Under the pieces are notes generated by a model. That model had not been told where the DNA came from. It ran no database searches and saw only the letters and a list, made by a program, of their open reading frames with translations. The position numbers and the translations under genes are program-made. A stretch of DNA of 64,000 nt from Antedon mediterranea. Lineage: Eukaryota > Animalia > Echinodermata. Numbering within the stretch: position 1 is the first letter of the stretch; each line of letters begins with the position of its first letter. This document shows, one piece after another, positions 3,301 through 55,523 of this stretch. The stretch spans positions 7,812,001 to 7,876,000 of the forward strand of contig NC_092672.1 of assembly GCF_964355755.1 (NCBI RefSeq). Reading direction: 5' to 3'.

Positions 3301-4419
3301 AAAGCGTGACCTAAATAGAATAGTCAAGACCGCATCGCGTATAATTGGATCTGCACAACTGCCTTTGGAGAACATATTTTCGGATCGTTTTCTGAAAAAG
3401 GCAGTGGCTATTAAAGATGATCAATTTCATCCGGCCTCTAGTATGTTCCAGTTGATGCGCAGCGGTCGGCGATTTCGTTCTATTAAGGCCAATAAGGCAC
3501 GATTTACAAATAGTTTCTTTCCAGGATCTATTAGAGCCTTAAATATGATGTAGACCCCTTTTTTTTTTTTGTAATGTTTTTGTTTTTGAGTTCGTGTTGT
3601 GTCCGTTGGATATTGTGCTCCGCCAACAGAGCAAACAGAATTTCTATGTTTTTCCTAAAACAAATGATAATAAATGATACTTGACTTGACTTGACTTGAT
3701 TATAAACTATTTATGTATTAATTCATGTATTTTTATATTTCGTTTTATTTATTATTACGTAATTATGCCAACATAATCGTGAACAAAGCCAGGCCTAATG
3801 TCCAATTTATTGTTGCTAGAAATGTCTTATATTGTTACCATTTAATATTTTAAACACATTTTTTGTAGATTTAACTGATGCAGAATTAACTATATTGATG
3901 GCAAGGGTATCTGGCTGGTGTACTACCAACGGGATAAACTTAAACAAGCTGAAAGTGGTAATGAGCGAGTTCACGAATGATAAGCTTACATTAGCCACGA
4001 TCCAGAAAAAGAGCAATGCTTTAGATCTGTTAAAACTACTGAGAGAGGCTGGATTAATTAATCCAACAGACATCAGTGTTCTCATTGAAATAATTAAATT
4101 GTCTGGGATTGAGGGTGTTCAAAGCGAGATTAAGGAAGAATGGAAGGTACCAAAATTCAAAGATGTTCAAATCAAACACGTTAGAGAGCATCGTAAGAAA
4201 CTTCTGGCGTTTGGTCGCAAAGTATCCAAGGAAAACGTCAAGACGATTGGATTTCTAAACAGCATCTTAGTTGACGAAAACACTGATCCATATTTCTTAA
4301 TTTTAGAATTAGAAAGAAATGGCTTACTCAAAGCAGGAGAAATGTTCGAGAAATTCATTAAGACACTTAAAGAATTTAATATGCATAATGAAGTTGATGC
4401 ATTAGAGCACGGTGAATAA
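358..4419 (+). CDS. Gene A (5' end outside window): S/T/P-rich micro-exon linker plus C-terminal tandem death-effector-domain (tDED)-like exon
   Basis: Phase 1-1 AG/GT exons 358-393 (DITSYKPGFSKP), 532-570 (DIITFNKPGSLTL), 1137-1172 (DMTDDKPALLKS), 1342-1404 and 2645-2704, then terminal exon 3869-4419 (DLTDAELTILMARVSGW...ALDLLKLLREAGLINPTDISVLIE...EHRKKLLAFGRKVSKENV...LILELERNGLL...NEVDAL). The two helical repeats follow the caspase-8/cFLIP DED pattern. The terminal exon has the same length (551 nt) as its homolog in gene C. Confidence 0.8.
795..1110 (-). mobile_element. tRNA-derived SINE
   Basis: The minus strand shows Pol III A box TGGCCGAGCGG and B box GGTTCGAGGCC, ending in an (AAAAT)n tail at ~795-812. 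A related body segment lies at ~43780-43845. Confidence 0.65.
1903..2630. repeat. Local rearranged direct duplication in a gene A intron
   Basis: ~1997-2160 is repeated at ~2338-2515, and ~1903-1995 is repeated at ~2544-2630 (order swapped). Confidence 0.7.
3210..3699 (+). mobile_element. 5'-truncated Rex1/Babar-type LINE (ORF C-terminus plus 3' tail)
   Basis: ORF SFYRSVIESVITYSLTVWFGS...LNRIVKTASRIIG...HP....FQLMRSGRRFRSI......RFTNSFFP is typical of the Rex1/Babar RT C-terminus, and is followed by AATAAA and a (CTTGA)n tail. Confidence 0.85.
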
Positions 4420-6349: not shown

Positions 6350-8551
6350 AATCACCTTATCGTTCGATTTGATTTTACCTTACATAAACTAGTAATTAGC
6401 ATTTTTTATAAACAGTGTAGCAATCAAGATTAAAAAACTGTTTTTATTTTAGTTTTATTTAATAAGTAGAACATTCATTTATTAATTGTTTATCTCAGGA
6501 CAGTTATGTTCACATTATTTACAAGGTAACCAGATTTTTTTTACATTTTTGTTTTATTGTGATACATTGTATTTAGGTCTAATTTAGCTTAGGTCTACAG
6601 TCTTATAATAATTATCTTGCTAAGTCAAATTTTATCCATTTAAAGTAACGTAAAAGTTTTTAAATCATCACATCCGGAATTAAGGTGTGGTTTCGGAGAG
6701 TGCGCAGAATGTCATTTAGACTGGCGATATAGGTTCCAAAATCGAAAAACTTTGTTTAGACGCGAGATTAGTAGTTATTCAAAGTACGATGAATACAACG
6801 ACAAAATCAATAGATATTACAACTGCTCTATTGCACCGATTCAAAAGAAGTTATGTTACGGGCCATAGACTAACGCCCGTATTCTTAAACCGGACTTTAG
6901 TCGTAGTTCGAGCTAAAACTAAAAAAATGACGTCATTTTAATTCATAAACCGAACTTCAACTAAATCACCGACTAAATCAGGCCAACCTCCACTAAATCG
7001 AGACGGATTTTGATCGATTTTTTTAGTCCTGGAGGGGGCAGACTAAATGGTCGACTAAATGGTTTTTAAACGATGTTTATAAAAAAACGTAACAGTCATC
7101 GAATTGTTATATTGGCCAGATATTGAAGAATGAAATATCTATATTTATATTAGCTTAATTAAATATACATTGGTATAAATTATAATAATGAAAATCATCT
7201 TTATTTACAACTGTATACAAATTACATTATTTTCTTCGCGCAAGTCCGACTTGAGCTACGTCACGCCATAGCGACAATGGGAGATGCGGCAATTCACCAC
7301 GCGATGGAATGTTTAGGGGGCCTAGCGCTTTCTTGTCACGCTATGAAGTGCGTGGTTCGTGGCGATCATACTTTGTTGGGGGCCTAGAAAATATAAAAGT
7401 TACCGTACCGCCATGGTTCCTAAATATATTTTTAAGATTTTATTTGTTGTTAATCAAATATACTTCACTGTTAAATTAATACTGATATTGTTCTAATAAT
7501 TAACGATTAAAATTATTTTTCATGTATATAGTCCTGATGCGTAAAAAGTGTTGAAAGAAATGGAAAGTGATATCAATGCGCAAAATTTCGTCTGCTCCTC
7601 AAATACTCTCTTGTCATTGGCCAATGTATAGCCTTTGTTACCCAGACGTGTGCAACTCGACTAAAAGCTCGACTTCATTAAGTCGAACTGCAAACTTCGA
7701 CTACTTCGTTTTTGAATCGAATTTGAAGTAATAGCTCGAACTACGACTTTTCCAAGTCGAACTTCGACTTGCGTGCGTGAGATGAACAATTACGTCACAC
7801 TTTATAGATATGTTTAAGGAATATTCATGTTTATTTTGTGACGTTTCATGAGGGGGTTCCCAACTTATGTACGAAAAGAAATATCGTGGCCGGGAAGAGT
7901 ACGCTTTTATTATACTATACTATTATATTATTAAGGCAGACAAACCGTGCGGAGGACGGGTTACTGGAAGACCACAATTTAATTACAAAAGTAGCAAGTA
8001 GGTAACAAATCTCCCATACACAAAAAAAAATGTAAAATATCAAAACCAGTTAAATAAAAATAAAATGTAAATGAATAAACTTACAAATTCGTGTTTCCGC
8101 AGCAATGTGTTTTTAATTAGATTTTTTATTTTATCTCTATGTATCAAATACTTAATACACCACAAAAAACAACCAAAATAATATAGTTTGGCATTTTATA
8201 CTTTCGTTATGTGTTTGCGCGCATCATCTAATTCACACAGCCCAGTTTTTCTTTAGCGTCTTTTAATTTCGTAAAGTCTAAACAGTCAAATAGTGTATAA
8301 CAAATCAATGGCCGTAAATACAGTAGCTCCGAATTTTATTCGTGATACAATTTGTTTTGATTTTAATAATTTGTCAAAGTACTTTTATCAGAGTGCGCTT
8401 TTATGATACTTGCCCATGCAAAGTATTTAACCACATATTAAGGCAGAAAAAGACCATGCGGAGCACGGGTTACTGCTAGTACATTTTAATTAATAATGAA
8501 TTGTATATTTATTTATAGGTTTTAGCTGGTATTGAAATATTGCATTTGAAG

Positions 8552-11500
8552 ATGTCTGTGAGTTTTAGACAAATCTCTTTTTTTCATAATTTTGTATTAT
8601 TTCAGTAATACCAGTATTTTCAAAACTCTAACTACATATTATATAAAGCAAACAAAAACTACATACATTATAACTATAGTAACCATGCCAATATGTGCAT
8701 AAATTGATAAATTTAGTGAATATAAAGTATATACGTAGGCCTAAATGTTTCACATATCAACGCTTTCCTGCTTTTTTCATTATTAATATGTATGTAACTT
8801 TTTTTTAACTATTGCTACATTATAGAATATTTTAAAATAACATTATAATCATTATAACATCAACCTTCCATCATTATAATAGAACCGAGGATTAGTTAAC
8901 TATTCTCGATCAGTACAACTACATAACAAACTGGCAGTACTGATGAATATAATTTCTTTCAGGAAAGAGGATACATTATGCTCTGCTATAGTTGGAAGGA
9001 CGAAAGGTAAGTTAAAATAATATATATTTTATATTATTATTATATTCCATGTAAACACGTGAACGTGATTGGTTCAAATGGCATCACATGGCTACCGTTC
9101 CGGGGATCAAAAATGTTATAACGGACTGATAAGTGAGTTTAAATGTAATATAACAGATATTGATTTGTGTATAGTGTAACAGTTGAGATCCTGCTTGGGA
9201 CTTATGCCTACATTTTTTTACTCGAGACTAATTATAAAATATAATTTCGTCGGGGGATCTCAAATGTTATAATCACTTCTAAGCAATTAATATCTGTATA
9301 ATAATAACTATACGAATAACTATTATTTTATAATATGATCTATATCGCATATTTAGAAATACATGTTTTTTTTTATAAAATAACACATTTTAGTAATACA
9401 TAATGAATGAAACATTTTTAATAATTTCAACAATAAAATTGTTAACGTTTATTAGAATCGTTGAAATGATATGGGAACGTTTAGAACAAGCCGGTTACAG
9501 AGTGTGGATTGACCGAAGTGGTACAGATGGACTGAAACGAAAACATAAGTCTATTTACATTGAAATGGCAAAGGCTGTCAAAAATGCGACGGTCGTAATT
9601 GGATGTTTATCTAAAGCATACCAGGAAAGCGAAAATTGTTTACGTGGTAAATGTTTGTATTGAATAATTTAAATATTTAAAACGATTCGTTGTTTTTGCA
9701 TTATTTTTGTTTAATCTACCCAGAACTAACATGGAAATTACATTATGTTTATAATTCAGAGGGCAATATGATCGGAAATCGTAACAAAGATTGTATTCCT
9801 ATAATTGCGGAGAAGGGTTATAAACGAAACGAGTGGGTTGAGACAATATTTGGTGGACAAATCTACATTGACTTTTCAAATGCAGAGGACTTTGAAAATA
9901 GTTTCAAGATTTTGCTTTTGAGGTTAAAAGATTACACAGATTTGGTAAATTATAATTGCATTATCTATTTATTGTTAATGTTCTTCCTCTTTTGGCCAGT
10001 GTTCCATGGTATAGAATAAGTTTCAATAATAACTAAAATCATTATATTGTTACAAGCATGCTCGTGAAAAAATGAAATCATTTTCTTTTTAAAAAATGAA
10101 TGTGAATTTGTTGTAACCAGACATAACTAAAATTCTTATTGAGAATAAATCTTTGTTCCAACATTTTTCATTCATTTCTTAGTTGAAATAAATAACATTG
10201 GTACCTTATGCGATCCTAATGCACTCCAAATTTCACGAAAATTGATCGAGTTAACTCTGTACTGCGTCATCTTTTCTTAAATATTTTTTCTGCTTACATA
10301 ATTTTATTATATTTTTTAGCATTTTCTAATACATAAATTGTCATGGCCAAATAAGATAAGAGATGTTTGGTATCATAAATAGTATTTCCTACAAGCATGA
10401 ACTAATCTAATGAACACATAAAGTTCGAAATATAGAATCACTTTTACTTTTACATAAACAGTAAAATATGTGAAAAGGAGCCAAAAAATAACTTTCTTTC
10501 AAAGTTTGACTCCTGTAACAAAAATAAATTATAAGCATAAATTTTGATCCAACAAAAATAATTCAATAAGAAAAAAACAACAACTATATAAAAGAAATAA
10601 AGTAAACATGTGCTAATGTTTTTGTAAAAGTGAACATTAACTTCATTTATGAATTTAAATCTTGAAGAGGTAAATTTTATAGCTAAGGATAAATTACTCC
10701 AAAGTTGAGCTCCATTAAAAAAAAGAAGTACGAACTTTCGGAATTGCAAAATTATTTCTATTACTAAATTTGGACTAGCATTAAGTGTAATTAAATATTT
10801 CATAGTTTGATGCGGTGTTTGCCATTAATTTGGTCATTAAAATTTAACTATACTTAAATCAATCAAACAACTTATAACCGTCTAAAATACCCAGGTCTTT
10901 AAATAATGGAGAAGATGGAGCCATAAATCAAAGAAAGTTAGGCCTATATACATCTAAGACACATTTTTTGGATAAGTAAAATAGGATATAGATGCGACTT
11001 ATATGTACTACCCCAGACTTCTAAAATCTATTTGATTGAATAAATGATTTATAGGCCTAAAGCATTAGTAAAATAATACGGGGTACAATATGGCGTAAAC
11101 TAAAAAGAATTCCATATTTCTTTTTTTTATCCTATATTTAATATATGGCTTTTCCATGTGATATGTTTATCTAATTTAACAACTAAAACTGAATTTCTTC
11201 TTTAATCATAACATTTTTTGTAATAAATATTGTTTGATTTAATAATAATTTTAGATCGGTTACAAACAAGGCCAACATCCATTAAGTCGCGTGCTACAAT
11301 GCATAGTGATACCGGACCGACAGACAAACAGACCAACAGACAGACAGACCGACAGACAGACGGACCGACCGACATAGTGAACTATACTGACCGAAATTAC
11401 TGAACATGTTTAAAAATGTTGAAATGTTTAAAAACATTTATATTTTTTTAATTTACACGTGCGTAGCCTGTCACTTTTGACGTGCTCGTATAACGTAATT

Positions 11501-14500
11501 TCGAGTTGAAAAGTAAGTCAAGAAAACAGAAATCGGGCAAAAAGAGTGCGCAATAACATTTAACGCGCAGTGCGCGCGCAAAAATCTGCGCACTCATGGC
11601 AATTTTGTAAACGCTTAAAATTGCCTGAAACGTACTCTTATTTCATCGAAAATAAATTTTGAAAATTTTAAGCGCGCGTACGCATGCGTTACATGCGCTA
11701 CGCACGTAATTGTATTGCCATATGATGATTTATGCCCTGAAATTTATGAGTACCAAATTTTATTTAATTGTGATTCATGGTTGTTAAGATATGATTACAA
11801 ACGTGATTTCGTTAAATCGTGCGTAGACCACGTAATTTTTTATTGCGCACCGTGAAAACATAACCACATCAATTCCTGGCCATAAGGAATATTCTGTGAA
11901 AAATTGACTTAGCTAGATTAAACTGATATCAAGATAAGGTCATAAAGCGATAAAACGCATAGTGATACCGGACCGACAGACAGACAGACAGACCGACAGA
12001 CAGACCGACAGACAGACCGACCGACCGACATAGTGAACTATAGAGTCGCTTCCACGCGACTAAAAACAATAGAATTAGTTTTGACAAAATTAACAGTTAA
12101 TTTATTAGCGTCATACCAGTTTGAAATTTTTTTTTTAAATGATGACTTACCATAGACAAATTGTCAAATAAGTTAGTGTCATCAGCAAATAAACGAAATC
12201 CATGGTTTATTTTTTGTTTTTGATCTTTCTACCATTGGGCCATGGATATTACTAAAAACAATATAAAAAGCGTAGGGAATGAGACTTTAAGGCTGTAGAA
12301 AATTCATCTATCGATATATTATCATCGTCCAATTTGGACTGATCTTCTAGCAGAATACATTGATGTTTATCTATTTTAACAGAATCTATATATAAATTTA
12401 CGTAAGGGCAAAATTCGGTAAATCGCGCCTTACTTCTAGAATTTTCACTCGATGGTATGTAAAGTTGGTTCGTACTTTCGGTACTGATTTTAACCGCCTG
12501 ATGTAACCCTGTTTACTAATTAAATTGAGTTAGATAATTAGTTATTGACGATTAAAACGAATTTAGGTTCAACGATTTGCCCCAAATAGGGGTGTTTTCC
12601 GATCGTGGTATACACTGTCTAATGGATGTCCATCTTGAAAAATACCCGCCAAAAAAATGCGAGGAGGCTTCGCATTTTTCTATCTCCTCCTACGATAATT
12701 GTTTTTAATAGCTGAAAACCGGTTGAACAGCTAGAGTACACCATCATAATGTTGAAGACAGGCCGATTTTCTTTAAAAAATACTATTTTGATAGATTTAA
12801 TATACGATTATACAAATGTATTGATTTGCGATGAATGGAACATCCCAATCTCTCAGTCTGCCAGAGTTTGGTTTAACACAAGTACTGTAGGTAAATTTAT
12901 GAGCCCTTGGTTTAACACATACGGTAGGTAAATATATGGGCCCTTTGAGAATAAACTTGCAATACTTTGACAATACTGTAAATACCTATTAACTATTTTT
13001 CATTTGAATCGAACATTTCTTACTGTGAATGTTCGTACTGTTAGATGTAACATAAAAATATATACAAATAAACTTTATTACTGAGACTGTGGATAGGCTC
13101 TACTGTTAGATATACAAATAAACTTTATACTGACAGTTCCTTCTCAACGTTTGTATTAATTAATAATTACCAAAAATATAAACGTCGTAGTGGTGTATCG
13201 TGACATGTACTTTAATATTTCAATCGATTATGACAGTGACAATTTTAACAAAGTATTAAATCGCAAATGTTTTAGGCCTACTGTATTTAGAGGTATATTA
13301 TTTATAGGCCTATAAAACATGAACAAAATATTTCGTTACTCAGTGGATAAAGAATATATTTAAAAATTGTTCCTCTTTGTACCTATCCGCTTTCCCATCC
13401 CTCAACCCTAATGTTACATAGCGAGGAGGCTTCGCATTTTCCTATCTCCTCCTACGATAATTGTTTTTAATAGCTGAAAACCGGTTGAACAGCTAGAGTA
13501 CACCATCATAATGTTGAAGACAGGCCGATTTTCTTTAAAAAAATACTATTTTGATAGATTGCTAGAGTACACCATCATAATGTTGAAGACAGGCCGATTT
13601 TCTTTAAAAAATACTATTTTGATAGATTTAATATACGATTATACAAATGTATTGATTTGCGATGAATGGAACATCCCAATCTCTCAGTCTGCCAGAGTTT
13701 GGTTTAACACAAGTACTGTAGGTAAATTTATGAGCCCTTGGTTTAACACATACGGTAGGTAAATATATGGGCCCTTTGAGAATAAACTTGCAATAGGTTC
13801 GGAAAATGTTAAAAACCAATTTCTATTATTTGAATCGGTAAACAGTTTCCATTTATTATACATTGATAATGAAACATGAAATATTCCTATTTATGTCCCT
13901 CGAGGTTCATTACAATTTATATTTAGTAGTCCCACGGACTTCATCTTAGCCACTCCCCCGAGTGCTAAGGCCAAATTTATGATACCCTACTTTCTATGTA
14001 AGTTTATGTGCTTATAAATTAAGACTCATGTAAACAGCTTGATTACATCATTTTACAGACAAACGAAACTTTTTTAAACCTACTGTTTCAATAACTGAGT
14101 ATAATACTGTATACGTTTTCATAAGTAAGCGCATATACATTTTCGTGTTTTCATTGACGAGATTGTAATAGTAACTTCAGTAACTATTACAGTACTTATT
14201 TATTATACGACACAAGACAATTGTATCTGACAGGTACGTACATTATTCTAAAAAATAAGTCTAGATAGATCCCTTAGGCGTCATAAATCACAGGCCAACA
14301 AATCAGTACTCATGACAGAAATTCGACCCAGTTTGGTTCACACAAATGTTTACAGGAATTTCAACACCACAACCGATGATTTGCCCTAAATATTTAGGTA
14401 GACTACAGTTTAATTTTTCACTGAATAGGAGCTTGCATTTCCGATTTCCATTTCGCAGAATGTCTAGGTCTATTTATTTAGTTTGGTTCTTATAATATAT

Positions 14501-17500
14501 AAATACAATCAACTTTATTACTGCGGTTCCATCACCACCACCACGTGCCGCCCAATTCCCGTACATACATTTCCATTTCTCCCTAATTTCTTTAATCCAC
14601 ATAAATTAATTGTCCTTTATGGAATCCAGTATTGGTTTTGTTGTCTCTATTTCTGAATACCCCAATTAGGGGGACACTTCCGTTTTTGTTTAGTGTCCCA
14701 AAAAAGTCCCCGTCCGTGGATTCTACTGTATTCGAGAACCATCTGTGAGCACCCCTAGATGGTACGCGAGCGAAGCGAGCGTGCCATCTAGTTAATACAA
14801 TTTATTGGATTACGGTCGAAGCGGCCGCCAACCAAAGCGGCCGCTAGTTCAATAACGGTAATTTGTATGGAACGCCGTGTGCGCTTTGATTGTCGTTGTT
14901 TTGTCATTTTTGATTGTCATTGTTTCGATCGTCAGGTTTTCTTTTCCTCGGACGTAAATAACAACTTACATTATTAATATTATGTAATATATTCTCTTTT
15001 TTGACAGATTGAATGTGATACCTTCTTTTAAACGAAATGGCGAATCGATGATTACTTACTTTAACTGTTCTAAATGATATAGGCCTATATGTTTAATAAA
15101 GTCAATAAAAAACATTGTGGTGTTTTTATTGTATAATATATAATATGCCAATTATTAAGAATAATATATATATTTTTTCAGTAAAATATATCAAATCAAA
15201 ATATATATATTTGTTATTGTATATTAATATATTAGTAAAGTAACTACTGTAAGTAGTACGTGTTCGCAAACATAATTTAATTACAATAACATGATGACAT
15301 CAATCTATTTATTTAATATCCTAAATTGTTTTATACCTTCAGATATATAAATATTGATCAATTTAAAATTAGTTTTAAATACTAAAATAAGACGCAAGTG
15401 CCTGTACGGTACGGTAATTAATTACGTGAATTTCTGCTAATAACTCGACTGGCGGCCGGCCAGGAATAGTGCTGTAGAAGGTCGCGTTTTCGTCTTCACG
15501 TTGCTTCATTGAAAACACAAACAATGTATTACAATGGAATAACACTTAAATGTATAACACACCCTATTACTAATAATAAAAACCAAGATTCGATAGTACA
15601 GTGTAAACGAGATATAAAAATTCGGCAATACCGTACGTAACTTATTATTGCAATACTGTATAAAGATTCGATGTAAATGAGATATAAATATTCGGCAATA
15701 CCGTACGTAAATTAATGCAATACTGTAAAGATTCGATGTAAATTAATGAGATATAAATATTCGGCAATACCGTACGTAACTTATTATTGCAATACTGTAT
15801 AAAGATTCGATGTAAATGAGATATAAAGATTCGGCAATACCGTACGTAAATTATTAATGCAATACTGTAAAGATTCGATGTAAATGAGATATAAATATTC
15901 GGCAATACCGTACGTAAATTATTATTGCAATACTGTATAAAGATTCGATGTAAATGAGATATAAAGATTCGGCAATACCGTACATGAATTATTAATGCAA
16001 TACTGTATAAAGATTTGATGTAAATTAGATATAAATATTCGGCAATACCGTACGTAAATTATTATTGCAATACTGTATAAAGATTTGATGTAAATGAGAT
16101 ATAAAGTTTCGGCAATACCGTACGTAAATTATTAATGCAATACTGTAAAGATTCGATGTAAATGAGATATAAATATTCGGCAATACCGTACGTAAATTAT
16201 TATTGCAATACTGTATAAAGATTCGATGTAAATGAGATATAAAGATTCGGCAATACCGTACATGAATTATTAATGCAATACTGTATAAAGATTTGATGTA
16301 AATTAGATATAAATATTCGGCAATACCGTACGTAAATTATTATTGCAATACTGTATAAAGATTCGATGTAAATGAGATATAAAGATTCGGCAATACCGTA
16401 CATGAATTATTAATGCAATACTGTATAAAGATTTGATGTAAATTAGATATAAATATTCGGCAATACCGTACGTAAATTATTATTGCAATACTGTATAAAG
16501 ATTTGATGTAAATGAGATATAAAGATTCGGCAATACCGTACGTAAATTATTAATGCAGTACTGTAAAAAGATTCGATAGTATGTAAATGAGATATAAATA
16601 TTCGGCAATACCGTACGTAAATTATTAATGCAATACTGTATAAAGACTCGATAGTATGTAAATGAGATATAAAGATTCGGCAATACCTTAATAGTACGTA
16701 AATTATTATTGCAATACTGTAAAAAGATTCTATGAGATACAAGGATTCAGCAATACCGTACGTAAATTATTAATGCAATACTGTATAAGGATTCGATAGT
16801 AAATGAGATATAAATGTTCGGCAATACCGTACGTAAATTATTATATTGCAATACTGTAAAAAGATTCGATAGTATGTAAATGAGATATAAAGATTCGGCA
16901 ATACCGTACGTAAATTATTATTGCAATACTGTATGAAGATTCGATAGTATGTAAATGAGATATAAATATTCGCCAATACCGTACGTAAATTATTAATGCA
17001 ATACTGTTAGACAGGTTCCATTTCTCAAAAAACGGCCTAGAAAACGAATCAAGAAGCATTTTTGGGTAGAAGCTGGGATCCACTTGATTTAGGATATTTC
17101 GACCTCGCTGATTACGAATATGGCGGATCCCAAGCGAAATTCGGCCATCTAAGCCCTTAATTTGCATAATTAAAAATGGCGGCCATTTTTTATAATTACC
17201 CTATATCTCGAGAACCACTAGTCACAGATAATTAATATTGGTCTCAAAATGTTTTAAATATATGTTTTTATATTCACTTTAATGACACATTTTCTCAAAA
17301 AATGGATGCAAGTCTTATTTCTGACATTTTGACCTTTGACCTTGATTTATCGTATCTCAGTAACCAATAATCGGAGAGACACGAAATAGGGCTCAAATTG
17401 TTTAGAAACTATACATTCATATTTATTATAATGAAATGTTTTTACAAAAAATGGCCGATTCTACAACTATTGACCTTTGAACTATTAGTCAAATATAATA

Positions 17501-20500
17501 ATATAACTTTGAAAATTGTGGTCTTATGAATTTTTTTTTCTTTTTAAATTGTTTAAAACATGTGTGTTTCTATCCAGTCTAATGGCACATTTTGTACAAG
17601 AATGGCCGATAGCATGGTTATTGACCTTTAAACTATAGCATAGGCCTACTGTATACTAAATATAATATAATTGCATAACTATGAAATTATTTATACACAA
17701 TAATAATTAGTAAAATTATAAAATTCACTGCCATCAAATATTATGTGTTATGATTTATATAGATTTAAAAAAAAATTGAACACGCAAGTTACATTTGTTG
17801 AAATTTGAAATTACCTGCCATCAATATGATGGAGTATGATTATAGATTTTTTTAAATGTGAACATGTCAGCTACATTTGGAAATTACCTGCCATCAATAT
17901 GATGGATTATGATTATAGATTTAAAAAAGAATTTGAACACGTAAGCTACATTTGAAAATTACCTGCCATCAATATGATGGATTATGATTATAGATTTAAA
18001 AAAGAATTTGAACACATCAGCTACATTTGGAAATTTGGAAATTACCTGCCATCAATATGATGGATTATGATTGTATAGAGGCCTACCTGCCATCAATATG
18101 ATGGATTATGATTATAGATTTAAAAAAGAATTTGAACACGTACTAAGCTACATTTGAAAATTACCTGCCATCAATATGATGGATTATGATTGTATAGATT
18201 TAAAAGAAAATGTGAACACGTAAGCTACATTTGGAATGAACATGTTAAGGGCATTAGTTGAAGATCATTCATGCAAAGGTTTCCGTCATCTTTAGCGTTG
18301 TTACAGCGGCATAAAGCTGTACATGGTAGTTTTGACTTCTTTCACCTACATCTATTGGTTATGCATCGTGTCTTGCATCCACAATAAATCATCTCTAACG
18401 AAGCAGTAGGAATAGCTTCATTTTTCAGAAGCACTGGTTGAAGTTTACCATTAGATAGCTCCCACCCAAAATCTGTTGGTGATGGCAAATGCTGGATTGG
18501 CGATACAGCTTTTTTCCACCATACGAGTGCTTGGAAGTGTGCTCTTTTTATATGTTGGTGCACTGCATCGCTTGTTGGAGGTAATGCCTCTGGTTTTGTT
18601 TTTTTTTTAAGCCTAACTTCATTGGTACTTTTAACTTGACAAACACCGTAAACATAGCAAATGAATCTTTCCGATTTCATAATAACTTGGGCACTGATAG
18701 GTTTTCTCCCAGGTCTTTAATTAGTTCATAATTTTTTTTAATACTTCCCATGCCGATGCCTCTGAGTGACCACTTAGATATGAACAGGGAAGAGTTAAAT
18801 TACTGTATGTATGTATTAATGTAATTTAACTCTTCCCTGGATATGAGGTAGTATCGCATCCACTAATAGTGTGGAATTGGAATCAGTGCTTTTGCATAAC
18901 CCTCGGGCAAGGCTTGAAAAATGTCTTTTATAGATACTTTCTTTTTTTGGATGTCCCTGTCATCATCCATTTGGATACCATTCTTTGGTGGTGAGACACT
19001 AGAATCACTAGTACGTCTGTATCCCTAGAAGCAACTACAACTGTGTCGTATCGGACATTGGCAGCATGACAAGTCTCGTGTCCGATTCTTCATGATCTGC
19101 GACCAGAGACAACGTATTCGTGTAGACTTTTGATGATTTAACAACTGATTCTTTCATAAATCCACCAGCTGTGACAATTTCTTTGTCTATAGGAGCTTGA
19201 CGAATCAACTCCTCTGATAGAAATCGTGCCAGATCTGCTTTATTATCTTGTAATGCCAAAAAGTTTGACCAGCAATTTGGCAGCGGTATTTCACCACTTT
19301 CTATAATTCGACGAATTGGTCTCTGTGTTTTGGTTCATCTTTGTCTAGTGGTGCCCTTTATCGACAGTTTTAAGTTAGGCATGCCATGTTAAAAAAAACA
19401 AAACCAGAGGCATTACCTCCAACAAGCGATGCAGTGCACCAACATATAAAAAGAGCACACTTCCAAGCACTCGTCTGGAAAAAAGCTGTATCGCCAATCC
19501 AGCATTTGCCATCACCAACAGATTTTGGGTGGGAGCTATCTAATGGTAAACTTCAACCAGTGCTTATGAAAAATGAAGCTATTCCTACTGCTTCGTTAGA
19601 GATGATTTATTGTGGATGCAAGACACGATGCATAACCAATAGATGTAGGTGCAAGAAGTCAAAACTACCATGTACAGCTTTATGCCGCTGTAACAACGCT
19701 AAAGATGACGGAAACCTTTGCATGAATGATCTTAAACTGATGCCCTTAACATGTTCATTCCAAATGTAGCTTACGTGTTCACATTTTCTTTTAAATCTAT
19801 ACAATCATAATCCATCATATTGATGGCAGGTAATTTTCAAATGTAGCTTAGTACGTGTTCAAATTCTTTTTTAAATCTATAATCATAATCCATCATATTG
19901 ATGGCAGGTAGGCCTACTATACAATCATAATCCATCATATTGATGGCAGGTAATTTCCAAATTTCCAAATGTAGCTGATGTGTTCAAATTCTTTTTTAAA
20001 TCTATAATCATAATCCATATGTAGCTTACGTGTTCAAATTCTTTTTTAAATCTATAATCATAATCCATCATATTGATGGCAGGTAATTTCCAAATGTAGC
20101 TGACATGTTCACATTTAAAAAAATCTATAACCATACTCCATCATATTGATGGCAGGTAATTTCAAATTTCAAATTTCAACAAATGTAACTTGCGTGTTCA
20201 AATTTTTTTTAAATCTATATAAATCATAACACATAATATTTGATGGCAGTGAACTTTATAATTGTACTAATTATTATTGTGTATAAATAATTTCATAGTT
20301 ATGCAATTATATTATATTTAGTATACAGTAGGCCTATGCTATAGTTTAAAGGTCAATAGCCATACTATCGGCCATTCTTGTACAAAATGTGCCATTAGAC
20401 TGGATAGAAACACACATGTTTTAAACAATTTAAAAAGAAAAAAAAATTCATAAGACCACAATTTTCAAAGTTATATTATTATATTTGACTAATAGTTCAA

Positions 20501-23500
20501 AGGTCAATAGTTGTAGAATCGGCCATTTTTTGTAAAAACATTTCATTATAATAAATATGAATGCATAGTTTCTGAACAATTTGAGCCCTATTTCGTGTCT
20601 CTCCGATTATTGGTTACTGAGATACGATAAATCAAGGTCAAAGGTCAAAATGTCAGAAATAAGACTTGCATCCATTTTTTGGGAAAATGTGTCATTAAAG
20701 TGAATATAAAAACATATATTTAAAACATTTTGAGACCAAAATTAATTATCTGTGACTAGTGGTTCTCGAGATATAGGGTAATTATAAAAAATGGCCGCCA
20801 TTTTTAATTATGCAAATTAAGGGCTTAGATGACCAAATTTCGCTTGGGATCCGCCATATTCGTAATCAGCGAGGTCGAAATATCCTAAATCAAGTGGATC
20901 CCAGCTTCTACCCAAAAATGCTTCTTACACCATATTTCAGAGGAAATAGAACTTGTCTATGTATAAAGATTCGATAGGAGAGTGCTCAAGAAACGTCGGG
21001 TCAAGAGGATAAAATAAACAAATAAATAAATAGTACGTAATAAATGAGACATAGAGGTTCAATAGTATGTAGATTATGATGCAAACGTAAATTATTAATG
21101 ATTCGATAATATATAATGTAAATATATTTAGTTAGTTATTAATATTAAAATACAAATAAAATATACATTAATTTATCCGCAGGCAAACTTAATTATTATA
21201 GAAATATAAAGATTCGATAGTACATGATTTGGCTTATATTTATTGGTTTGACCATACACACAGCTGTAACTCAACTCGCCATAGGCCATGGCGTTGACAA
21301 CGACAATCAAAGATTAAAGCGCACATGGCGTTCCATACAAATGACGATATTAAACTGGCGGCCGCTTTGGTTGGCGGCCGCTTCGACCATACTCCCTACC
21401 TCCAATTTATTAACCCGCTGTGAAATTCATCGTCGCCATCGTCGTCGTCGTCATCGTCATCGTCATCGTCATTATTATTATGTTATCCTATCATGCCTTA
21501 TAAAACTAGAGGGTACTCCGAGAGTACAAACCTCCGCCTACTGTAAAATTCCCCTATATAAAATTCCCCCTGAATATTTTTTTTTTACATTTTTTTTATT
21601 AGTTCTAAGTGTAAATATGTTAACTGCACACTACAAAGTTGTGGATGACAGTGTGGTGTAATGGTTATGTATCCAGCCTCTCACAGTTGAGATCGCTGGT
21701 TCAAGTCCCACTGAGGTTTTTTTTTTGTTATTATTTTTTTATTTCTTTTTTGTTTTTGTTTTTTGTGGACCATGATCTTTGATCCTGACCCTTCAAAATT
21801 TAACCACAATTATATGATGTGTCATTGATCATTGTGGCTAAGTTTGGTGAGAATCGAATAAAAACTGTGGTCTCTAGGCAGTAAAATAGTTGTTTGTTAG
21901 TTGTGACCTTGACCTATGACCTTTTCCCCTCAAATTCGAACTCGTCCGAGCTTTTGGGGAATAGATCATTGTTGCCAAATTTGGTGAGAATCGGATAAAA
22001 GCTGTGGCCTCCAGGCTGTTCACAGACACACACACAAACACACAAACACACACACAAACATACAGGGGTGAAAACATAACCTCCTTGGCGGAGGTAATAA
22101 AATTGAGATGTATAAAACAGACATTTGCTAAATTATAGTAATAATAATAAATAAACAGTACATTTTATAAAACAGACACGAGGTGAAACTAAATGTATAA
22201 TAATGTTATCCGTAGAACCAATAATATTAAGAATTTAGAAATCACTCTTTTTATCTACGTATCACACACGTTGGAACATTATTTCTAATTGATAGTGGAC
22301 TTTTATAACTAGATAAACCAACTGTTTTTTGTGTTACAGAATCCTAATACCGATGATAAGGACTCATCAAATAATACTCCGCAGCATGCCGCAACTTCTG
22401 GTGAAAATCCAGGTCAGATTTAAATTTCAAAACTTAAATTGCTAGCATAAAATTAGTGTCAATAAAAATGAATGTGTGGATTGCCTCAGATCACCTGTTC
22501 GCTTCAGTAGCTCTGCCCCTGAATGCAAGAAACAAACGATCGAAAGAAAAACAAGACCATATACATGGCTGCAGTCGCGTGTTCAAGATAGTGTTTACCG
22601 ACCGACATGGTGAGCTGTAGAGTCGCGTTGTACGCACGCGACTAAAAATATATGATTTAGCAATTTTCGAAAAATGTTTTTGCTGTGCAACATCATACCA
22701 ATTTCCACAGTAATAATAGCATAATGAAAAGAGAAAACCTTTTTAATGAGTGTTTTCTTTTATCTATTTTATAGGTAAAACGACCCAAGTATCAGATGTC
22801 ATCAACATTCTCAACAGTGAAATTAAAGAACTGCAAAAACATGTTGCTGATCTCAAAGAACAAGCCAGCATGGTCAAAGATCAATACAAAACGAATGAAG
22901 CAGTTGGTTCAACAATTCCTAAAGTTCTCAGGAAAGCTAATTTAAATGAAATAGCTGATAAAGTCGAAAGTAGGCAAAAAATTAAATGCATTTTAGATTA
23001 AAATATCTTTTTTTTTAAATCTAGGCCTATATATTATATATATGTGTTAATGTATTCAATTTACTTACTTTACTTTCTTTCATTAAGCATAGTCTCGATA
23101 GATAGAGTAAAATAGAGTACTTAAACCGAACTGGGATTTAAAATTAACAATGTCAATTCAAAACAGGAATATGAAGAATTTTATTTATTTGTAACATTAT
23201 AATTGTTATTTTTCATCAAATAAAGAGTTCCTTTTTATATAGATGCAACCAATAAATTAATGGATTTGGCAAAGAAATTGGGCACTGAATGGAAACAAGT
23301 TGGAGTATATCTTGGCTTCAAGCAAGAAGATTTCTATCGGTTTGAAAATGATAGTGGTAACAACACAGCATGGGCAATTTTCAGCATGCTGGACCGATGG
23401 TATAAGAATGCAGAAGTTCATGAGAGGTATGAAAAACTTACTAAAGCGCTCAAAGAATCCGATAGGGAGGATTTAGCAGATGAAGTTCAAAGTTGGCTAG

Positions 23501-23505
23501 CATAA
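8552..23505 (+). CDS. Gene B1: TIR (TIR_2-like) - linker - coiled coil - Death domain protein, ~318 aa
   Basis: Exons 8552-8557 (MS), 8963-9006 (ERGYIMLCYSWKDE), 9456-9646 (…GYRVWIDR…VIGCLSKAYQESENCLR), 9760-9944 (EGNMIG…IPIIAEKGY…IYIDFS…), 22340-22412, 22775-22969, 23243-23505 (LMDLAKKLGTEWKQVGVYLGF…FSMLDRW…LTKALKESDREDLADEV, Death domain). All introns are GT-AG, and the total of 957 nt is in frame. Confidence 0.85.
11262..12066. mobile_element. Helentron-associated (DINE/HINE-like) non-autonomous element
   Basis: (GACA/GACC)n microsatellite blocks and a terminal hairpin agtcgc-ttccac-gcgact next to an A run. Short copies occur at ~22550-22650, ~38347-38450 and, reversed, ~54590-54712. Confidence 0.55.
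12385..14791 (+). mobile_element. Non-autonomous Helitron
   Basis: Starts A|TC(TATATATAAAT), ends with a GC hairpin (acgcgagcgaagcgagcgt) and CTAG|T. Has an internal duplication of ~12660-12963 at ~13421-13794. Its 5' kb is repeated at 51755-52790. Confidence 0.8.
15585..17007. repeat. Tandem minisatellite, ~60-64-bp unit
   Basis: Over 20 copies of aaagattcgatgtaaatgagatataaatattcggcaataccgtacgtaaattattattgcaatactgtat. The unit resumes at 20960, after the Academ insertion. Confidence 0.95.
18229..19370 (-). pseudogene. Disrupted Academ-type transposase C-terminus (XPG-like nuclease plus Cys-rich finger)
   Basis: Minus-strand motifs SIK..TR, FL...NK.DLARFL, DHEESDTR, RDTDVLVI, FHTISGCDTTSY, LPPT..AVHQHIKRAHFQ...W and CGCK..C....C.C.K..L.CT..C.C, broken by stops and frameshifts. 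Confidence 0.75.
19386..19769 (+). pseudogene. Inverted second copy of the transposase Cys-rich C-terminus
   Basis: 127-aa ORF nearly identical to the minus-strand fragment at 18229-18605. Confidence 0.75.
21503..22100 (+). mobile_element. Interspersed repeat (HINE-like) with TGACCT motifs, CA-rich tract and embedded tRNA-like segment
   Basis: Terminal hairpin acctccttggcggaggt, (CA)n-rich tract ~22021-22060, and A/B boxes TGGTGTAATGG / GGTTCAAGTCC at ~21653-21710. Confidence 0.5.
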
Positions 23506-35839: not shown

Positions 35840-38800
35840 ATGTCTGTGAGTTTTTGACAAATCTCTTTTTTCACAATTTTGTATTATTTCAGTAATACCA
35901 GTATTTTCAAAACTCTAACTACATATTATATAAAGCAAACAAAAACTACATACATTATAACTATAGTAACCATGCCAATATGTGCATAAATTGTTAAATT
36001 TAGTGAATATAAAGTATATACGTATGCATACATTTTTCACATATTTGTATTGGGCTTTTTTTTAAACTATTGCTACATTATAGAATATTTTAAAATAACA
36101 TTATAATCATTATAACATCAACCTTCCATCATTATAATAGAACCGAGGATTAGTTAACTATTCTCGATCACTACAACTACATAACAAACTGGCAGTACTG
36201 ATGAATATAATTTCTTTCAGGGAAGAGGATACATTATGCTCTGCTATAGTTGGAAGGACGAAAGGTAAGTTAAAATAATATATATTTTATATTATATATC
36301 CCATGTAAACACGTGAACGTGATTGGTTCAAAAGGCATCACATGGCTACCGTTTCGTGGATCAAAAATGTTATAGCGGACTGATCAGTGGGTTATAAATG
36401 TAATATAACAGATATTGATTTATATATATGTGTAGTGTAACAGTTAATATCCTGCTTGGGACCTATGCTTTTTATTCGAGACTAATTATTAAATATTATT
36501 TCCTCGGAGGATTTCAAATGTTATAATTACCTCTAAGCAATTAATATCTGTATAATATAATGACTATACGAATAACAATGATTTTATAATAGGATCTATA
36601 TCGCATATTTAGAAATACATATTTTTTTTATATAAAATAACGCAATTTAGTAATACATACTAAACATACATACATTTTTAATAATTTAGAAATACGTGTT
36701 TTTTTTTTGTTTTTTTTAAATAACACATTTAAGTAATACATACAAATAATGAATTTTTAATAATTTCAATAATAAAATTGTTAACGTTTATTAGAATCGT
36801 TGAAAAGATATGGGAACGTTTAGAACAAGCCGGTTACAGAGTGTGGATTGACCGAAGTGGTACAGATGGATTGAAACGAAAACATAAGTCTATTTACATT
36901 GAAATGGCAAAGGCTGTCAAAAATGCGACAGTCGTAATTGGATGTTTATCTAAAGCATACCAGGAAAGCGAAAATTGTTTACGTGGTAAATGTTTGTATT
37001 GCTTTGAATAATTAAATATTTAAAACGATTCGTTGTTTTTGCATTATTTTTGTTTAATCTATCCAGAACTAACATGGAAATTACATTATGTTTATAATTC
37101 AGAGGGCAATATGATCGGAAATCGTAACAAAGATTGTTTTCCTATAATTGCGGAGAAGGGTTATAAACGAAACGAGTGGGTTGAGACAATATTTGGTGGA
37201 CAAATTTACATTGACTTTTCAAATGCAGAGGACTTTGAAAATAGTTTCAAGATTTTGCTTTTGAGGCTAAAAGATTACACAGATTTGGTAAATTATAATT
37301 GCATTATCTATTTATTGTTAATGTTCTTCCTCTTTTGGCCAGTGTTCCAAGGTATAGAATAAGTTTCAATAATAACTAAAATCATATAAATATAGTGTTA
37401 CAAGCATGCTCGTGAAAAAATGAAAATTGAGAATACATCTTTGTTCCAACATTTTTCATTCATTTCTTAGTTGAAATAAATAACATTGGTACCTTATGCG
37501 ATCCTAATGCACTCCAAATTCCACGAAAATTGATCGAGTTAACTCTGTAGGCCTACTGCGTCATCTTTTCTTAAATATTAATTTCTCTGCTTAGGCCTAC
37601 ATAATTTTATTATGTTTGGTATCATAAATAGTATTTCCTACAAGCAGGGCCATGGCCACTAATTAACTAATCAAATGAACACATAAAGTTCGAAATATAG
37701 AATCACTTTACATAAACAGTAAAATATGTGAAAAGGAGCCAAAAAATAGCTTTCTGCTAATCGAAGTTTGACTCCTGTCACAAAAATAAATTATAAGTTA
37801 AATTTTGATCCAACTACAATAATTCAATAAGAAAAAAACTACAACTATATAAAAGAAATAAAGTAAACATGTGCTAATGTTTTTGTAAAAGTGAACATTA
37901 ACTTCATTTATGAATTTAAATTTTATAGGGTAAATTACTCCAAAGTTGAGCTCCATTAAAAAAAAAGAAGTACGAACTTTCGGAATTGCAAAATTATTTC
38001 TATTACTAAATCTGGACTAGCATTTTTACTCTATTTTCACTCTTTATCTACGTATCACACACGTTGAAACATTTTTTTTTTAATTGATAGTGGACTTTTA
38101 TAACTAGATAAACCAACTGTTTTTTGTGTTACAGAATCCTAATACCAATGATAAGGACTCATCAGATAATACTTCGCAGCATGCCGCAACTTCTGGTGAA
38201 AATCCAGGTCAGATTTAAATTTCAAAACTTAAATTGCTAGCATAAAATTAGTGTCAATAAAAATGAATGTGTGGATTGCCTCAGATCACCTGTTCGCTTC
38301 AGTAGCTCTGCCCCTGAATGCAGGAAACAAACGATCGAAAGAAAAACAAGACCATATATGCAGTCGCGTGTTCAAGATAGTGTTTACCGACCAACCGACC
38401 GACCGACATGGTGAGCTGTAGAGTCGCGTTGTACGCACGCGACTAAAAATATATGATTTAGCAATTTTTGAAAAATGTTTTTGCTGTGCATGTCAGCAAA
38501 ACCAACATCATACCAATTTCCACAGTAACAATAGCATAATGAAAAGAGAAAACCTTTTTAATGAGTGTTTTCTTTTATCTATTTTATAGGTAAAACGACC
38601 CAAGTATCAGATGTCATCAACATTCTCAACAGTGAAATTAAAGAACTGCAAAAACATGTTGCTGATCTCAAAGAACAAGCCAGCATGGTCAAAGATCAAT
38701 ACAAGACGAATGAAGCAGTTGGTTCAACAATTCCTAAAGTTCTCAGGAAAGCTAATCTAAATGAAATAGCTGATAAAGTCGAAAGTAGGCAAAAAATTAA

Positions 38801-39319
38801 ATGCATTTTAGATTAAAATATCTTTTTTTTTAATCTAGGCCTATATATTATATAGATGTGTTAATGTATTCAATTTACTTACTTTACTTTCTTTCGTTAA
38901 GCATAGTCTCGATAGATAGAGTAAAATAGAGTACTTAAACCGAACTGGGATTTAAAATTAACAATCTCAATTCAAAACAGGAATATGAAGAATTTTATTT
39001 ATTTGTAACATTATAATTGTTATTTTTCATCAAATAAAGAGTTCCTTTTTATATAGATGCAACCAATAAATTAATGGATTTGGCAAAGAAATTGGGCACT
39101 GAATGGAAACAAGTTGGAGTATATCTTGGCTTCAAGCAAGAAGATTTCTATCGGTTTGAAAATGATAGTGGTAACAACACAGCATGGGCAATTTTCAGCA
39201 TGCTGGACCGATGGTATAAGAATGCAGAAATTCATGAGAGGTATGAAAAACTTACTAAAGCGCTCAAAGAATCCGATAGGAAGGATTTAGCAGATGAAGT
39301 TCAAAGTTGGCTAGCATAA
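35840..39319 (+). CDS. Gene B2: TIR - linker - coiled coil - Death domain protein (paralog or allele of B1), ~318 aa
   Basis: Exons 35840-35845, 36221-36264, 36795-36985, 37103-37287, 38135-38207, 38590-38784 and 39057-39319; all GT-AG, in frame, with the same sizes as in B1. Confidence 0.88.
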
Positions 39320-46038: not shown

Positions 46039-49000
46039 ATGACGGTAAGTAATTTATTTTATTATAAACATCTATTGGAGAGGAAAGTATCGAGAACAAT
46101 AGAATAAATTTAGTACCGTATACACACCAAAGTAAAACAATAAATAAGCCATACTACTACCATAGCTGGTCAATTTAAAGTTTCTTTATACACCGGCTCC
46201 ACATTTCGAAAACTTTGAATATAAAAATAAAAAACATAATTTATTTATGTCATTGCTATGTGCCTGTTTGCACTTTGTTCAATGCATTCGTTAAATATTT
46301 TTTTGTTTACTCCAATTGCCGTTGAATACGAATTTATGAATTATGAACTATATCTGTATCGATTTCACTGTTCAAACTAGGAATTATTCACTGTACCAAA
46401 TTATCATAATATAAATAAAGACTTATACCGTAATTCTATTATATCATTACTCTTACAGTATAATATGTATTGACATGAATTTATGTAATGTAATTAATGT
46501 GAATTGTTTTTAGGAAAGAGGATACATTATGCTCAGCTACAATTGGGCTCACAAAGTGTAAGTTTAACAAATAATAAAACAAGTAATAAGATATTTAGGA
46601 CTAACCATGCACCCGGATTTCAGTATTATACGCGTGATGACGCGCAAACGTCGTGTTTTATTCATTCTTGTATATCTAGTCACCATTGATAAAATTACAG
46701 ACTATAGAACAGTCAGGGTAAAATATATATAAATATGATTGGAGGAAAAGAGAAGGCAACATTATGACGTATTTCACAAAATAGTGACTAAATGCCGTCA
46801 AGAATTGCAACGTCATCGTATTACGTAAGCCTAAAAATGATATTAGTGTATAATCCATCAGTCATGTTTAGAGAACAATAGTTTTAAGAAAGAATCAATT
46901 ATTTTCTCTTCCTTAGAATCGTTAGAAATATAAGATACCGTCTATGGCAAGAAGGTTACAGAGTGTGGATAGATATTGATGAGAAGGATGGAATGAAAGA
47001 CTTTATTTACAGTGATATGCCTAATGCTGTCAAACATGCCACAGTTGTCATATCCTGTTTGTCTAAGAAATACGAAGACAGCCCTAATTGTAAAACTGGT
47101 AGGTCTGTTTTAATTGATTTTATATAAGCTTATCTAGGTTATCGACAGCGATTTATCTTAATATTCCTAACACATCTTGGCATACATGGCGTGTCATAGG
47201 CTAGCCCCAGTCTCTAAATAAATAATAGTCTTTTTATGTTGTTAGCATTCCACAAGTCATTTCGTGTCTACAAGCTACAGTTATTATACGTATGAAACGC
47301 CGCGTGTGTCTTTTTTAGCATTATTATGTCTATCTACACTATTTAGCGAGTGCCATACTTGACTTTGAAACTACAAACAAACATCAAAATATATCTATAT
47401 TGTATAACTTAAAGACAACAATCAATTATTAGAGAAACAATCATTAGAGACTTGTGGCAGGTATAATATCAAACAGACGATTTCGAGTTCGAATCTCCTT
47501 TATGTCATTTAACAAGAAAGACAATAATGCAAAAAATGCAGAGTCACCGTTATTATTAGGACCATTTTCCACTGGAAAACTGCAATGTCTTGAAACAAGG
47601 TGCAGAGAATAAAATTGATGGTGAGCTATATTTAATTTTTTTTTCTTTATTTTAGAGGGTGGTTGCATTGGACATTATAATAAGAAACGCATTCCACTAC
47701 TGATGGAGAAGGATTATAAACTTGACGACTGGGTTTTGGGAATATTTGTTGGACGAATTTGGATTGACTTTTCAAATGTAGAACGCTTTGAAGCCAATTT
47801 TCAGGAACTGCTTGCAAGACTACAGAACTACCCAACTTTGGTAAGTTAAACGATTCTACACGATTTATTGTATTATGCCCATTACAACAGACGGAACTGA
47901 AGATTGAGGACTCCTTACTAACCCTTAGCCTATAGAAAACAAACCCATTCTTTGTCAACCCTAATCATACAATAATAGATCTCACTTTTTGTTATACCAT
48001 AAGAAAATCATTTTTGTTACAGAATCCAGAGAAGAACAACCGAATACCAGCTAATCTACCGCTACCTGAACCACTTTCTTCGAACACAAATCCAAGTATG
48101 TTAAAGATTTATGTAGAAATTATCTTAACAATTAAGCTAAATAATTTAATATGCTATTTCAGAATACTATATTTACTTTTAAATTACAAGTAGTCTTGGA
48201 ATAAGCTTGGTGATAACCTACGTATATCATATGACTCCCGGGAGGCAAATGGTAAGTGTAATTTGAGTGGGGCTCATTGTTGTAGGCTTCGTCAATTCAA
48301 ATAAGCTTTTGGACACATTAGAATAAAAAGCATTGCCTGTCGATTAGAAATGGCAGAGGGTGAATTTATTTATTTACTCATATGAAATCTAAAAAACATC
48401 TACCATATAGCAAATTTAACTTAGCTGTATAAACACTGAAAAACTACAGTATATAAGCATAGGGAATTTAGGTTTTTATATCCAATTCAATTGTCTGTTC
48501 GCCATTTCCCTCTATTGTGGATGATAAAGGCAAGATACTTCTCATAAAATTCACAAATAATCTAAAAAAAAATTTACTTTTGTGTTTAGTTCCACCATCT
48601 ACATCTTCGGATCCTCCAGATACAGCGCCCCCAGTGGACACAACGGATAATCCACGTTCTTTAGGATCAGGTAAGCAAATCTTTCCTTAATCAGAAATGA
48701 CTTTTTTTTTAAACTATAGTTTACTGATAACATTTTAAAAGCTAACTGATCTATTTTACAGAAATATCTGGTAATCTTGAAGAGAGGACAACTAGTAGGC
48801 CTACAAGACCAAGTTACAGTAGGATTATATCAGAACATTAATTTCTTTACATAGGCCTATAATTATCATAGTAGGATCCTACACATTTCTACAGATAATA
48901 AACAAGAGATATATCATTGCATGTAAAGCAGTATAATTTATAGGCCTTGGGACACATCTCCTCTCAGACCTAATCTATACGTATTTCAAAATACATCAAC

Positions 49001-55491: not shown

Positions 55492-55523
55492 TTAAGTATA
55501 TCAATATATTTATTTTGTTGTAG

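Follow-up and report, generated by a model that had tools for sequence, protein, structure and literature searches.

Does a glutamate whose codon is completed only by splicing mark the TIR proteins of this locus as NAD+-cleaving enzymes? We addressed this in a 64,000-nucleotide stretch of the Antedon mediterranea genome (contig NC_092672.1, positions 7,812,001 to 7,876,000; hereafter, the window), for which an earlier note, made from the letters alone, had proposed TIR enzymes with a hidden catalytic glutamate. The window encodes three tandem paralogues, B1, B2, and C, which are soluble TIR-death-fold proteins that retain the glutamate of helix alpha-C. Judged from their sequences and structural models, they may be NAD+-cleaving immune effectors that are switched on by death-fold clustering, a reading that we favor tentatively and place somewhat short of an even chance.

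Three tandem genes and a split glutamate codon

A six-frame motif scan found CLSKAYQESENCLR, CLSKKYEDSPNCKT, IMLCYSW/IMLSYNW, and VWID at three places in the window, whose plus strand carries three copies of a three-exon TIR. The first coding exon of B1 (8519-8557; ATG at 8552) encodes Met-Ser. TIR exon 1 (8963-9006) encodes strand beta-A with IMLCYSW, including a Cys10 codon (TGC, 8984-8986) where the family has Ser, and TIR exon 2 (9456-9646) encodes VWID with Asp36, a lengthened BB loop, beta-C, the start of alpha-C (SENCLR), and the first base of the Glu81 codon. A 113-nt, phase-1 GT-AG intron (9647-9759) interrupts this codon, and TIR exon 3 (9760-9944) supplies its remainder and continues from alpha-C to alpha-E. 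Beyond an intron of 12,395 nt lie a linker exon (22340-22412), an exon for a likely coiled coil (22775-22969), and a death-domain exon with the stop codon (23243-23505; PF00531, E = 2.1e-14, above the cut-off). B2 (35840-39319, plus strand) is a near-identical duplicate, with coding exons at 35840-35845, 36221-36264, 36795-36985, 37103-37287, 38135-38207, 38590-38784, and 39057-39319. C (46039-49666, plus strand) encodes a TIR, a linker, and a tandem death-effector-domain (DED)-like unit from exons at 46039-46044, 46514-46557, 46917-47098, 47656-47840, 48023-48095, 48590-48670, 48762-48818, and 49116-49666.

GT-AG exon sets taken from the window reproduced the proteins P0003 (B1) and P0004 (C; XP_071944130) letter for letter, and the B2 exons, placed by their offset from B1, gave P0001 (XP_071944129) exactly. 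B1 and B2 are each 318 amino acids long and differ at eight of them; C has 392. When the middle exon served as a protein query, the one match came from Antedon mediterranea; its cluster contains XP_071944125 and XP_071944126 (B1) together with XP_071944129 (B2). We noted that RefSeq isoform P0002 (311 amino acids; 8978-23505) starts at a Met inside beta-A, which would leave a TIR without its first seven residues.

In B1, exon 9456-9646 ends in TGT TTA CGT G|gt and exon 9760-9944 begins with ag|AG GGC; the Glu81 codon is thus G (9646) plus AG (9760-9761), and it is divided identically in B2 (36985 and 37103-37104) and C (47098 and 47656-47657). Reading through the B1 intron gives CLRGKCLY*, with a stop five codons into the retained intron, so the unspliced ORF has Gly in place of Glu, as the earlier note had claimed. 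Its statement that the codon is formed as G|AG only by splicing agrees with the exon structures of all three genes and, in B1, with a joint in a contig from run X1. The term 'hidden' is apt for ORFs but not for the public RefSeq models of B1, B2, and C from Antedon mediterranea, which already contain the glutamate.

The X1 contig, a single contig, splices 8557>8963, 9006>9456, and 9646>9760, all with GT..AG ends; the RNA status of X1 is a guess, and no run was recorded as RNA among the matches listed in the run search. On its shorter side, the 9646>9760 joint is covered by 137 letters. The contig shows no mismatch to B1 over 9454-9645 and one (9833 G>C) over 9759-9895, and it equals B1 at all five sites within its covered span at which B1 and B2 differ. 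Since the contig crosses three introns and sides with B1, B1 is transcribed and spliced at the proposed junction. This support covers the 5' part of B1; the junctions between the B1 TIR and its death domain, and all those of B2 and C, come from RefSeq models. The 9833 G>C change, which would convert Glu105 to Asp, is likely allelic.

The split codon itself carries no information. Given an exon that ends in G, base composition yields a Glu codon with a chance of ~0.18, and the three paralogues inherited one intron, so the split is unremarkable. What sets the residue apart from chance is that it forms a conserved column of the family, with Glu in 197 of 206 homologous domains. Alternative splicing that drops the glutamate was considered and rejected: the next AG, 2 nt downstream, shifts the frame, and intron retention meets the stop described above.

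Kinship of the TIR and death-fold domains

The domain had been described as TIR_2-like, and Pfam TIR_2 (PF13676) indeed scored 74.9 bits for P0003 and 63.2 bits for P0004 against a curated cut-off of 28 bits; PF01582 gave no row for either protein at E 1e-3. In B1 and B2, the TIR (residues 1-142) is followed by a linker, a likely coiled coil (about 170-230, from heptads and weak coiled-coil Pfam rows only), and a death domain (PF00531, 53.9 bits over P0003 residues 236-317; cut-off 22.6 bits). The solved sequences nearest to this death domain are PIDD, THOC1, RIPK1, and RAIDD (PIDD, E = 3e-5 with the B2 protein as query). In C, a proline-rich linker leads from the TIR to a C-terminal helical unit of 182 residues, the model of which (pLDDT 89.3, from a six-row alignment) resembles a tandem-DED fold. 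All 27 Foldseek matches listed for this unit were caspase-8, cFLIP, or vFLIP DED structures (best TM 0.65-0.70, best E 0.01); its Pfam DED score of 16.2 bits lies below the 35.9 cut-off. The proposed fusion of TIRs to death folds is therefore borne out by the death domain in B1 and B2 and, as modeled, by the tandem-DED-like unit in C.

Related crinoid proteins shuffle the same modules, as TIR-tandem DED (Anneissia P0010), TIR-death domain (Antedon P0011), tandem DED-TIR-tandem DED (Anneissia P0147, from the alignment), and tandem DED-tandem DED (Antedon P0159). The window itself has three TIR-less tandem-DED-like exons on the plus strand, 31-36% identical to the C unit: the terminal exon of an upstream gene (3860-4419), before which no TIR exon was found in the window; a broken copy (55515-56108) with a frameshift near 55640-55670; and an intact terminal exon (57021-57562), upstream of which no TIR exon was found. 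These exons are possible cFLIP-short-like regulators. Elsewhere in the TIR family, P0005, P0006 (Clavelina), P0007, and P0009 consist of two or three tandem TIRs, and further relatives have ARM, SAM, NACHT, kinase, ankyrin, or fibrinogen domains.

A profile built from full-length relatives matched only ARM-repeat structures, so we worked with one drawn mostly from TIRs alone. In the latter, S-x-N-C-x-x-E aligned with RPS4 SVWCVRE, RPP1 SSWCLDE, and Cat1 SDWCWDE, which places Glu81 in register with the RPS4 residue that we take to be the catalytic E88. The five best distinct entries were from Cat1, RPS4, RPPT/RPP1, and TIR-1 (E 4e-9 to 1e-3); MyD88 (E 0.27) and TLR1 (0.57) ranked below the enzymatic TIRs. 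A single-exon search of solved structures yielded nothing beyond weak matches to plant TIRs (E of at least 0.35), and an ESM Atlas search only TIR_2 clusters. In an AF2 model of the TIR (pLDDT 89.9), Glu81 lies within helix 76-87. The profile register and the modeled helix both favor the earlier placement of this residue at the alpha-C position of enzymatic TIRs.

The model superposed on the SPARTA TIR (Z 17.6, rmsd 2.2, 132 aligned residues) and the SARM1 TIR (Z 16.1, rmsd 2.2, 122 aligned), and about as well on TIRs that are non-enzymatic or untested, namely Hydra TRR-2 (Z 16.9), IL-1RAcPb (15.3), and MyD88 (15.2), so the fold does not separate enzymes from scaffolds. For SARM1, the superposition gives ranges only (4-137 on 561-700). 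The pairwise alignment of the paralogue P0011 with SARM1 matches its SY and ID with SARM1 SY (568) and ID (594) and slips around E642. In a tree of 34 rows hand-picked from 209, the seven crinoid TIRs formed one group (100/99), nearest to two hemichordate TIRs (89/85), and the B1/B2 branch was long (0.97).

By sequence, B1, B2, and C appear to be crinoid members of a known but uncharacterized, widespread TIR_2 family. The ARM-TIR(-SAM)/orphan TIR_2 proteins (clades 10-11 of a TIR atlas, in the part of it available; 10.64898/2026.04.30.722052) share the motifs M[IL]SY[QN]W, W.D..M, and S..Y..S.NC..E; in them the TIR follows ARM repeats, whereas the crinoid genes join an N-terminal TIR to a death domain or a tandem-DED-like unit. 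By motif look-up only, 14 of the atlas rows listed bear these motifs (eight in clade 10, two in clade 11, and four unsupported), and the available part of the atlas table has no Antedon or Anneissia row. According to the accessible text of that work, TIR_2 defines no subtype and clades 10-13 are uncharacterized (10.64898/2026.04.30.722052 / PMC13142454); Aplysia has ARM-TIR proteins and orphan TIRs whose function is unknown, as listed in the accessible text of the report (PMC9334734). A second preprint, also available in part, covers Glu-bearing animal TIRs outside the TLRs that are cytoplasmic and keep the alpha-C Glu, as the crinoid genes do; the architectures in its Figure 3 legend (ARM, BRCT, ROC-COR, LRR, NTPase, RCC1, SLOG, and TM) include no death fold, unlike the crinoid genes (10.64898/2026.04.20.719644). 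In the literature covered, which leaves out most subscription papers, the papers listed included neither a study of these genes nor one of a TIR-tandem DED enzyme.

The three genes are not SARM1 orthologues, being TIR-coiled coil-death domain and TIR-tandem DED rather than ARM-SAM-SAM-TIR. With SARM1/TIR-1 they share the TIR fold, the SY and ID motifs, and a proposed activation by clustering; they differ from it in their 16% identity, in the lack of ARM, SAM, the SARM1-specific loop, and the Trp four residues ahead of the Glu (position E-4), and in the death fold that takes the place of the SAM octamer. Plant TNL TIRs (RPS4, RPP1, and ROQ1) and the bacterial Cat1 and SPARTA TIRs are the best profile and structure matches and share the Glu register and the N-terminal TIR, but the crinoid chain has no NB-ARC/LRR, CARF, or APAZ sensor, and Asn replaces the Trp. 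By analogy, the genes may act in the manner of SARM1 or a plant TNL, with a different module in charge of clustering. They are not MyD88 orthologues either: B1 and B2 resemble MyD88 in having one TIR and one death domain, but their order is reversed, a likely coiled coil lies between the two, the Glu is present, and the TIR belongs to another subfamily. C is like caspase-8 and cFLIP in its modeled tandem-DED-like unit, but has no caspase domain and an N-terminal TIR.

Pocket residues and the case for enzymatic activity

We then compared the putative active site across the family. A HMMER scan returned 2,405 representatives at E<=0.001; residues were counted in the best 150 of the 2,405, in which 208 of 209 domains were kept and, less the window's own two, left 206 domains from 148 proteins, and selection by likeness to the query somewhat inflates their conservation. 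Among these 206, Glu81 is kept in 197, Ser10 in 202, Tyr11 in 200, and Asp36 in 193; two further aromatics, W13 (183) and Y72 (204), are also conserved. B1, B2, and C all retain Tyr11, Asp36, and Glu81, and Y11, D36, Y72, S75, C78, and E81 are present in all seven crinoid rows, at 32-98% identity. Of the residues equivalent to this pocket, mutation of SARM1 Y568 or D594 lowers activity, according to the accessible part of a study that also covers E642 (PMC8266388). S10, Y11, or D36 is altered in 5/9 domains that have lost the Glu and in 6/197 that bear it (Fisher p 2e-5, relatedness ignored). Such joint decay, with fixation in crinoids, is to us the best evidence that the site may be in use. 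A concentration of Glu-less copies in tandem-TIR proteins was considered and set aside (7/111 versus 2/95, p 0.18).

By itself, the glutamate is a modest predictor of activity, and a large known family carries it by default. According to the accessible text of a 2026 preprint, it is retained by the majority of animal TIRs other than those of TLR/IL-1R; in an E. coli screen, 12/61 Glu-bearing animal TIRs were active, an echinoderm and a lancelet TIR among them, whereas TLR2, IL-1R9, and IL-1R10 kept the Glu without activity (10.64898/2026.04.20.719644). Likewise, Dictyostelium TirB and TirD keep the Glu and have no NADase activity, in the available part of the atlas (10.64898/2026.04.30.722052 / PMC13142454). 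The earlier interpretation is hence only partly upheld: the Glu stands in register, but that it makes these proteins enzymes rather than scaffolds does not follow, as its retention predicts activity weakly.

A second feature bears on the product. The residue at E-4 is Asn in B1, B2, and C, and among the 206 relatives it is Asn in 171, Tyr in five, and Trp in none. The accessible text of one study tabulates an aromatic (W, Y, or F) at this position in 12/12 cyclase TIRs and ties it to cyclization; the aromatic of this WxxxE motif corresponds to AbTir W204 and SARM1 W638, and loss of the Trp reduces or abolishes activity in SARM1, L6, and ROQ1 (10.1101/2022.05.07.491051). The proposal of 'NAD+-cleaving or signal-producing' enzymes is weakened in its second half, as the aromatic of all 12 tabulated cyclases is Asn here. 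The absent Trp also counts against enzymatic activity in general, as do, for B1 and B2, Cys10, a BB-loop spacing of 18 residues, and the long branch. The rank of enzymatic TIRs at the top of the family profile and the pocket residues, kept and lost jointly, speak in its favor.

If the proteins are enzymes, we propose that an upstream death-fold platform (a death-domain-bearing NLR, a FADD-like adaptor, or a DED filament) would recruit the C-terminal death domain or tandem DED. Clustering would allow head-to-tail stacking of the N-terminal TIRs and thereby a two-subunit active site, in which Glu81 would cleave NAD+ to nicotinamide and ADPR, linear ADPR being likelier than a cyclic isomer given the Asn that stands in for the Trp in WxxxE. 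Activation of the TIR by the death fold is inferred here from architecture only. Precedents for its parts, each from the available portion of its source, are bacterial death-like domains fused to TIR effectors (PMC8195603) and sea-urchin NLRs with N-terminal death domains (PMC11508797). Considered singly, C is somewhat more likely than not to turn over NAD+ in some form, and for B1/B2 the same question is nearly balanced, leaning slightly toward no; the whole chain of recruitment, stacking, and cleavage in all three genes is less probable than turnover by any one of them. C is the better candidate because B1 and B2 alone have Cys10 and the lengthened BB loop.

A less probable but substantial alternative is that the three proteins are non-enzymatic adaptors, whose TIR co-assembles with an upstream TIR receptor while the death domain or tandem DED recruits RIPK-, RAIDD-, FADD-, or caspase-8-like partners, the Glu being inherited and idle. 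A death domain joined to a TIR follows MyD88 logic, the nearest death domains are those of PIDD, RIPK1, and RAIDD, the C-terminus of C is like the caspase-8/cFLIP tandem DED, and the E-4 aromatic is missing; moreover, 49/61 Glu-bearing animal TIRs gave no product in the screen, as far as its accessible text goes (10.64898/2026.04.20.719644). That screen, however, was run without native oligomerization and read out three cyclic products and the NAD+ level, by the same text. By PF01582 and the higher rank of enzymatic TIRs, this TIR falls outside the TLR/MyD88 type, and the pocket residues do not vary within the crinoid clade, at about 40% identity, and change jointly upon Glu loss, all of which argues against an idle site.

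It is rather unlikely, though compatible with the drift in B1 and B2, that labor is divided: C would be active, and the young duplicates would be either weakened enzymes or decoys, serving to tune or inhibit the assembly of TIRs. Position 10 is Cys (TGC) in B1/B2 and Ser (AGC) in C; Cys occurs in 0/206 relatives, and Ser10 is present in 195/195 ungapped Glu-bearing ones. The BB-loop spacing is 18 in B1/B2 and 15 in C against a family mode of 12, and the B1/B2 loop, six residues longer and of low pLDDT, has Thr for a Met found in 174/206. By these residues, the pocket of B1/B2 appears the most altered among the three genes, and their branch is long. On the other hand, no essential role is known for the beta-A Ser10, Ser to Cys is conservative, and Y11, D36, and E81 are intact. 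B1 is also transcribed and spliced, and dN/dS is 0.17 between the B1 and B2 TIRs (from just three nonsynonymous and four synonymous changes, too few to test) and 0.40 between B1 and C.

Finally, self-assembling or direct-sensing enzymes, like TIR-only and Thoeris TIRs, that make a cyclic or unusual ADPR messenger while the death fold or coiled coil restrains them or relays the signal are improbable given the E-4 counts above, even though canonical cADPR was what the majority of active animal TIRs produced as isolated domains (accessible text of 10.64898/2026.04.20.719644) and W13 and Y72 might replace the missing Trp.

Returning to clustered NAD+-cleaving effectors, more notable than the Glu are the crinoid shuffling of TIRs with death folds, the Asn in place of Trp, and the drifted B1/B2 pocket. 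The proteins are small and soluble, belong to a widespread TIR family without known chemistry, and have in their death fold a candidate switch; C, with its consensus pocket, and B1/B2, with a drifted one, form a natural pair. If this reading is true, death-fold-driven NAD+ cleavage would tie the death-fold signalosomes of animals to the enzymology of TIRs, a coupling that has to date been proposed for bacteria. It would also provide animal TIR enzymes beyond SARM1 with a native route of activation, which the 2026 screen could not reproduce by its own account, in the text available (10.64898/2026.04.20.719644). A further reading is rather unlikely: death-domain NLRs or DED filaments may recruit TIR-death domain and TIR-tandem DED proteins instead of a caspase, a crinoid split version of a plant TIR-NLR whose platform output would be NAD+ cleavage rather than proteolysis, with the TIR-less tandem-DED neighbors as cFLIP-like brakes. 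Were this so, the large Asn-xxx-Glu TIR family would gain its first mechanism.

Duplication and neighboring sequence

The coding sequences of B1 and B2 differ at synonymous sites by pS 0.032 and their introns differ by insertions, which bears on whether they are two loci or a false haplotype duplication. Several copies of the segment 5927-6868 upstream of B1 lie between the two genes (25.8-31.3 kb, 85-88% identity), consistent with a tandem duplication unit that included upstream sequence. Intron 4 of B1 (9945-22339) measures 12,395 nt, compared with 847 nt in B2. It contains a ~70-bp tandem array at 15.6-17.0 kb and a 1.56-kb inverted repeat (17051-18606 / 19391-20926, 96.6%) with CXC-type ORFs at 18342-18716 (minus strand) and 19374-19769 (plus strand), which are presumably transposase-like. 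Downstream of C, a 325-amino-acid ORF on the minus strand (50483-51460; zf-RVT, E = 4e-6) is the end of a non-LTR retrotransposon, and a long low-complexity tandem repeat at 58776-61196 has a strong GC skew that gives rise to spurious long ORFs.
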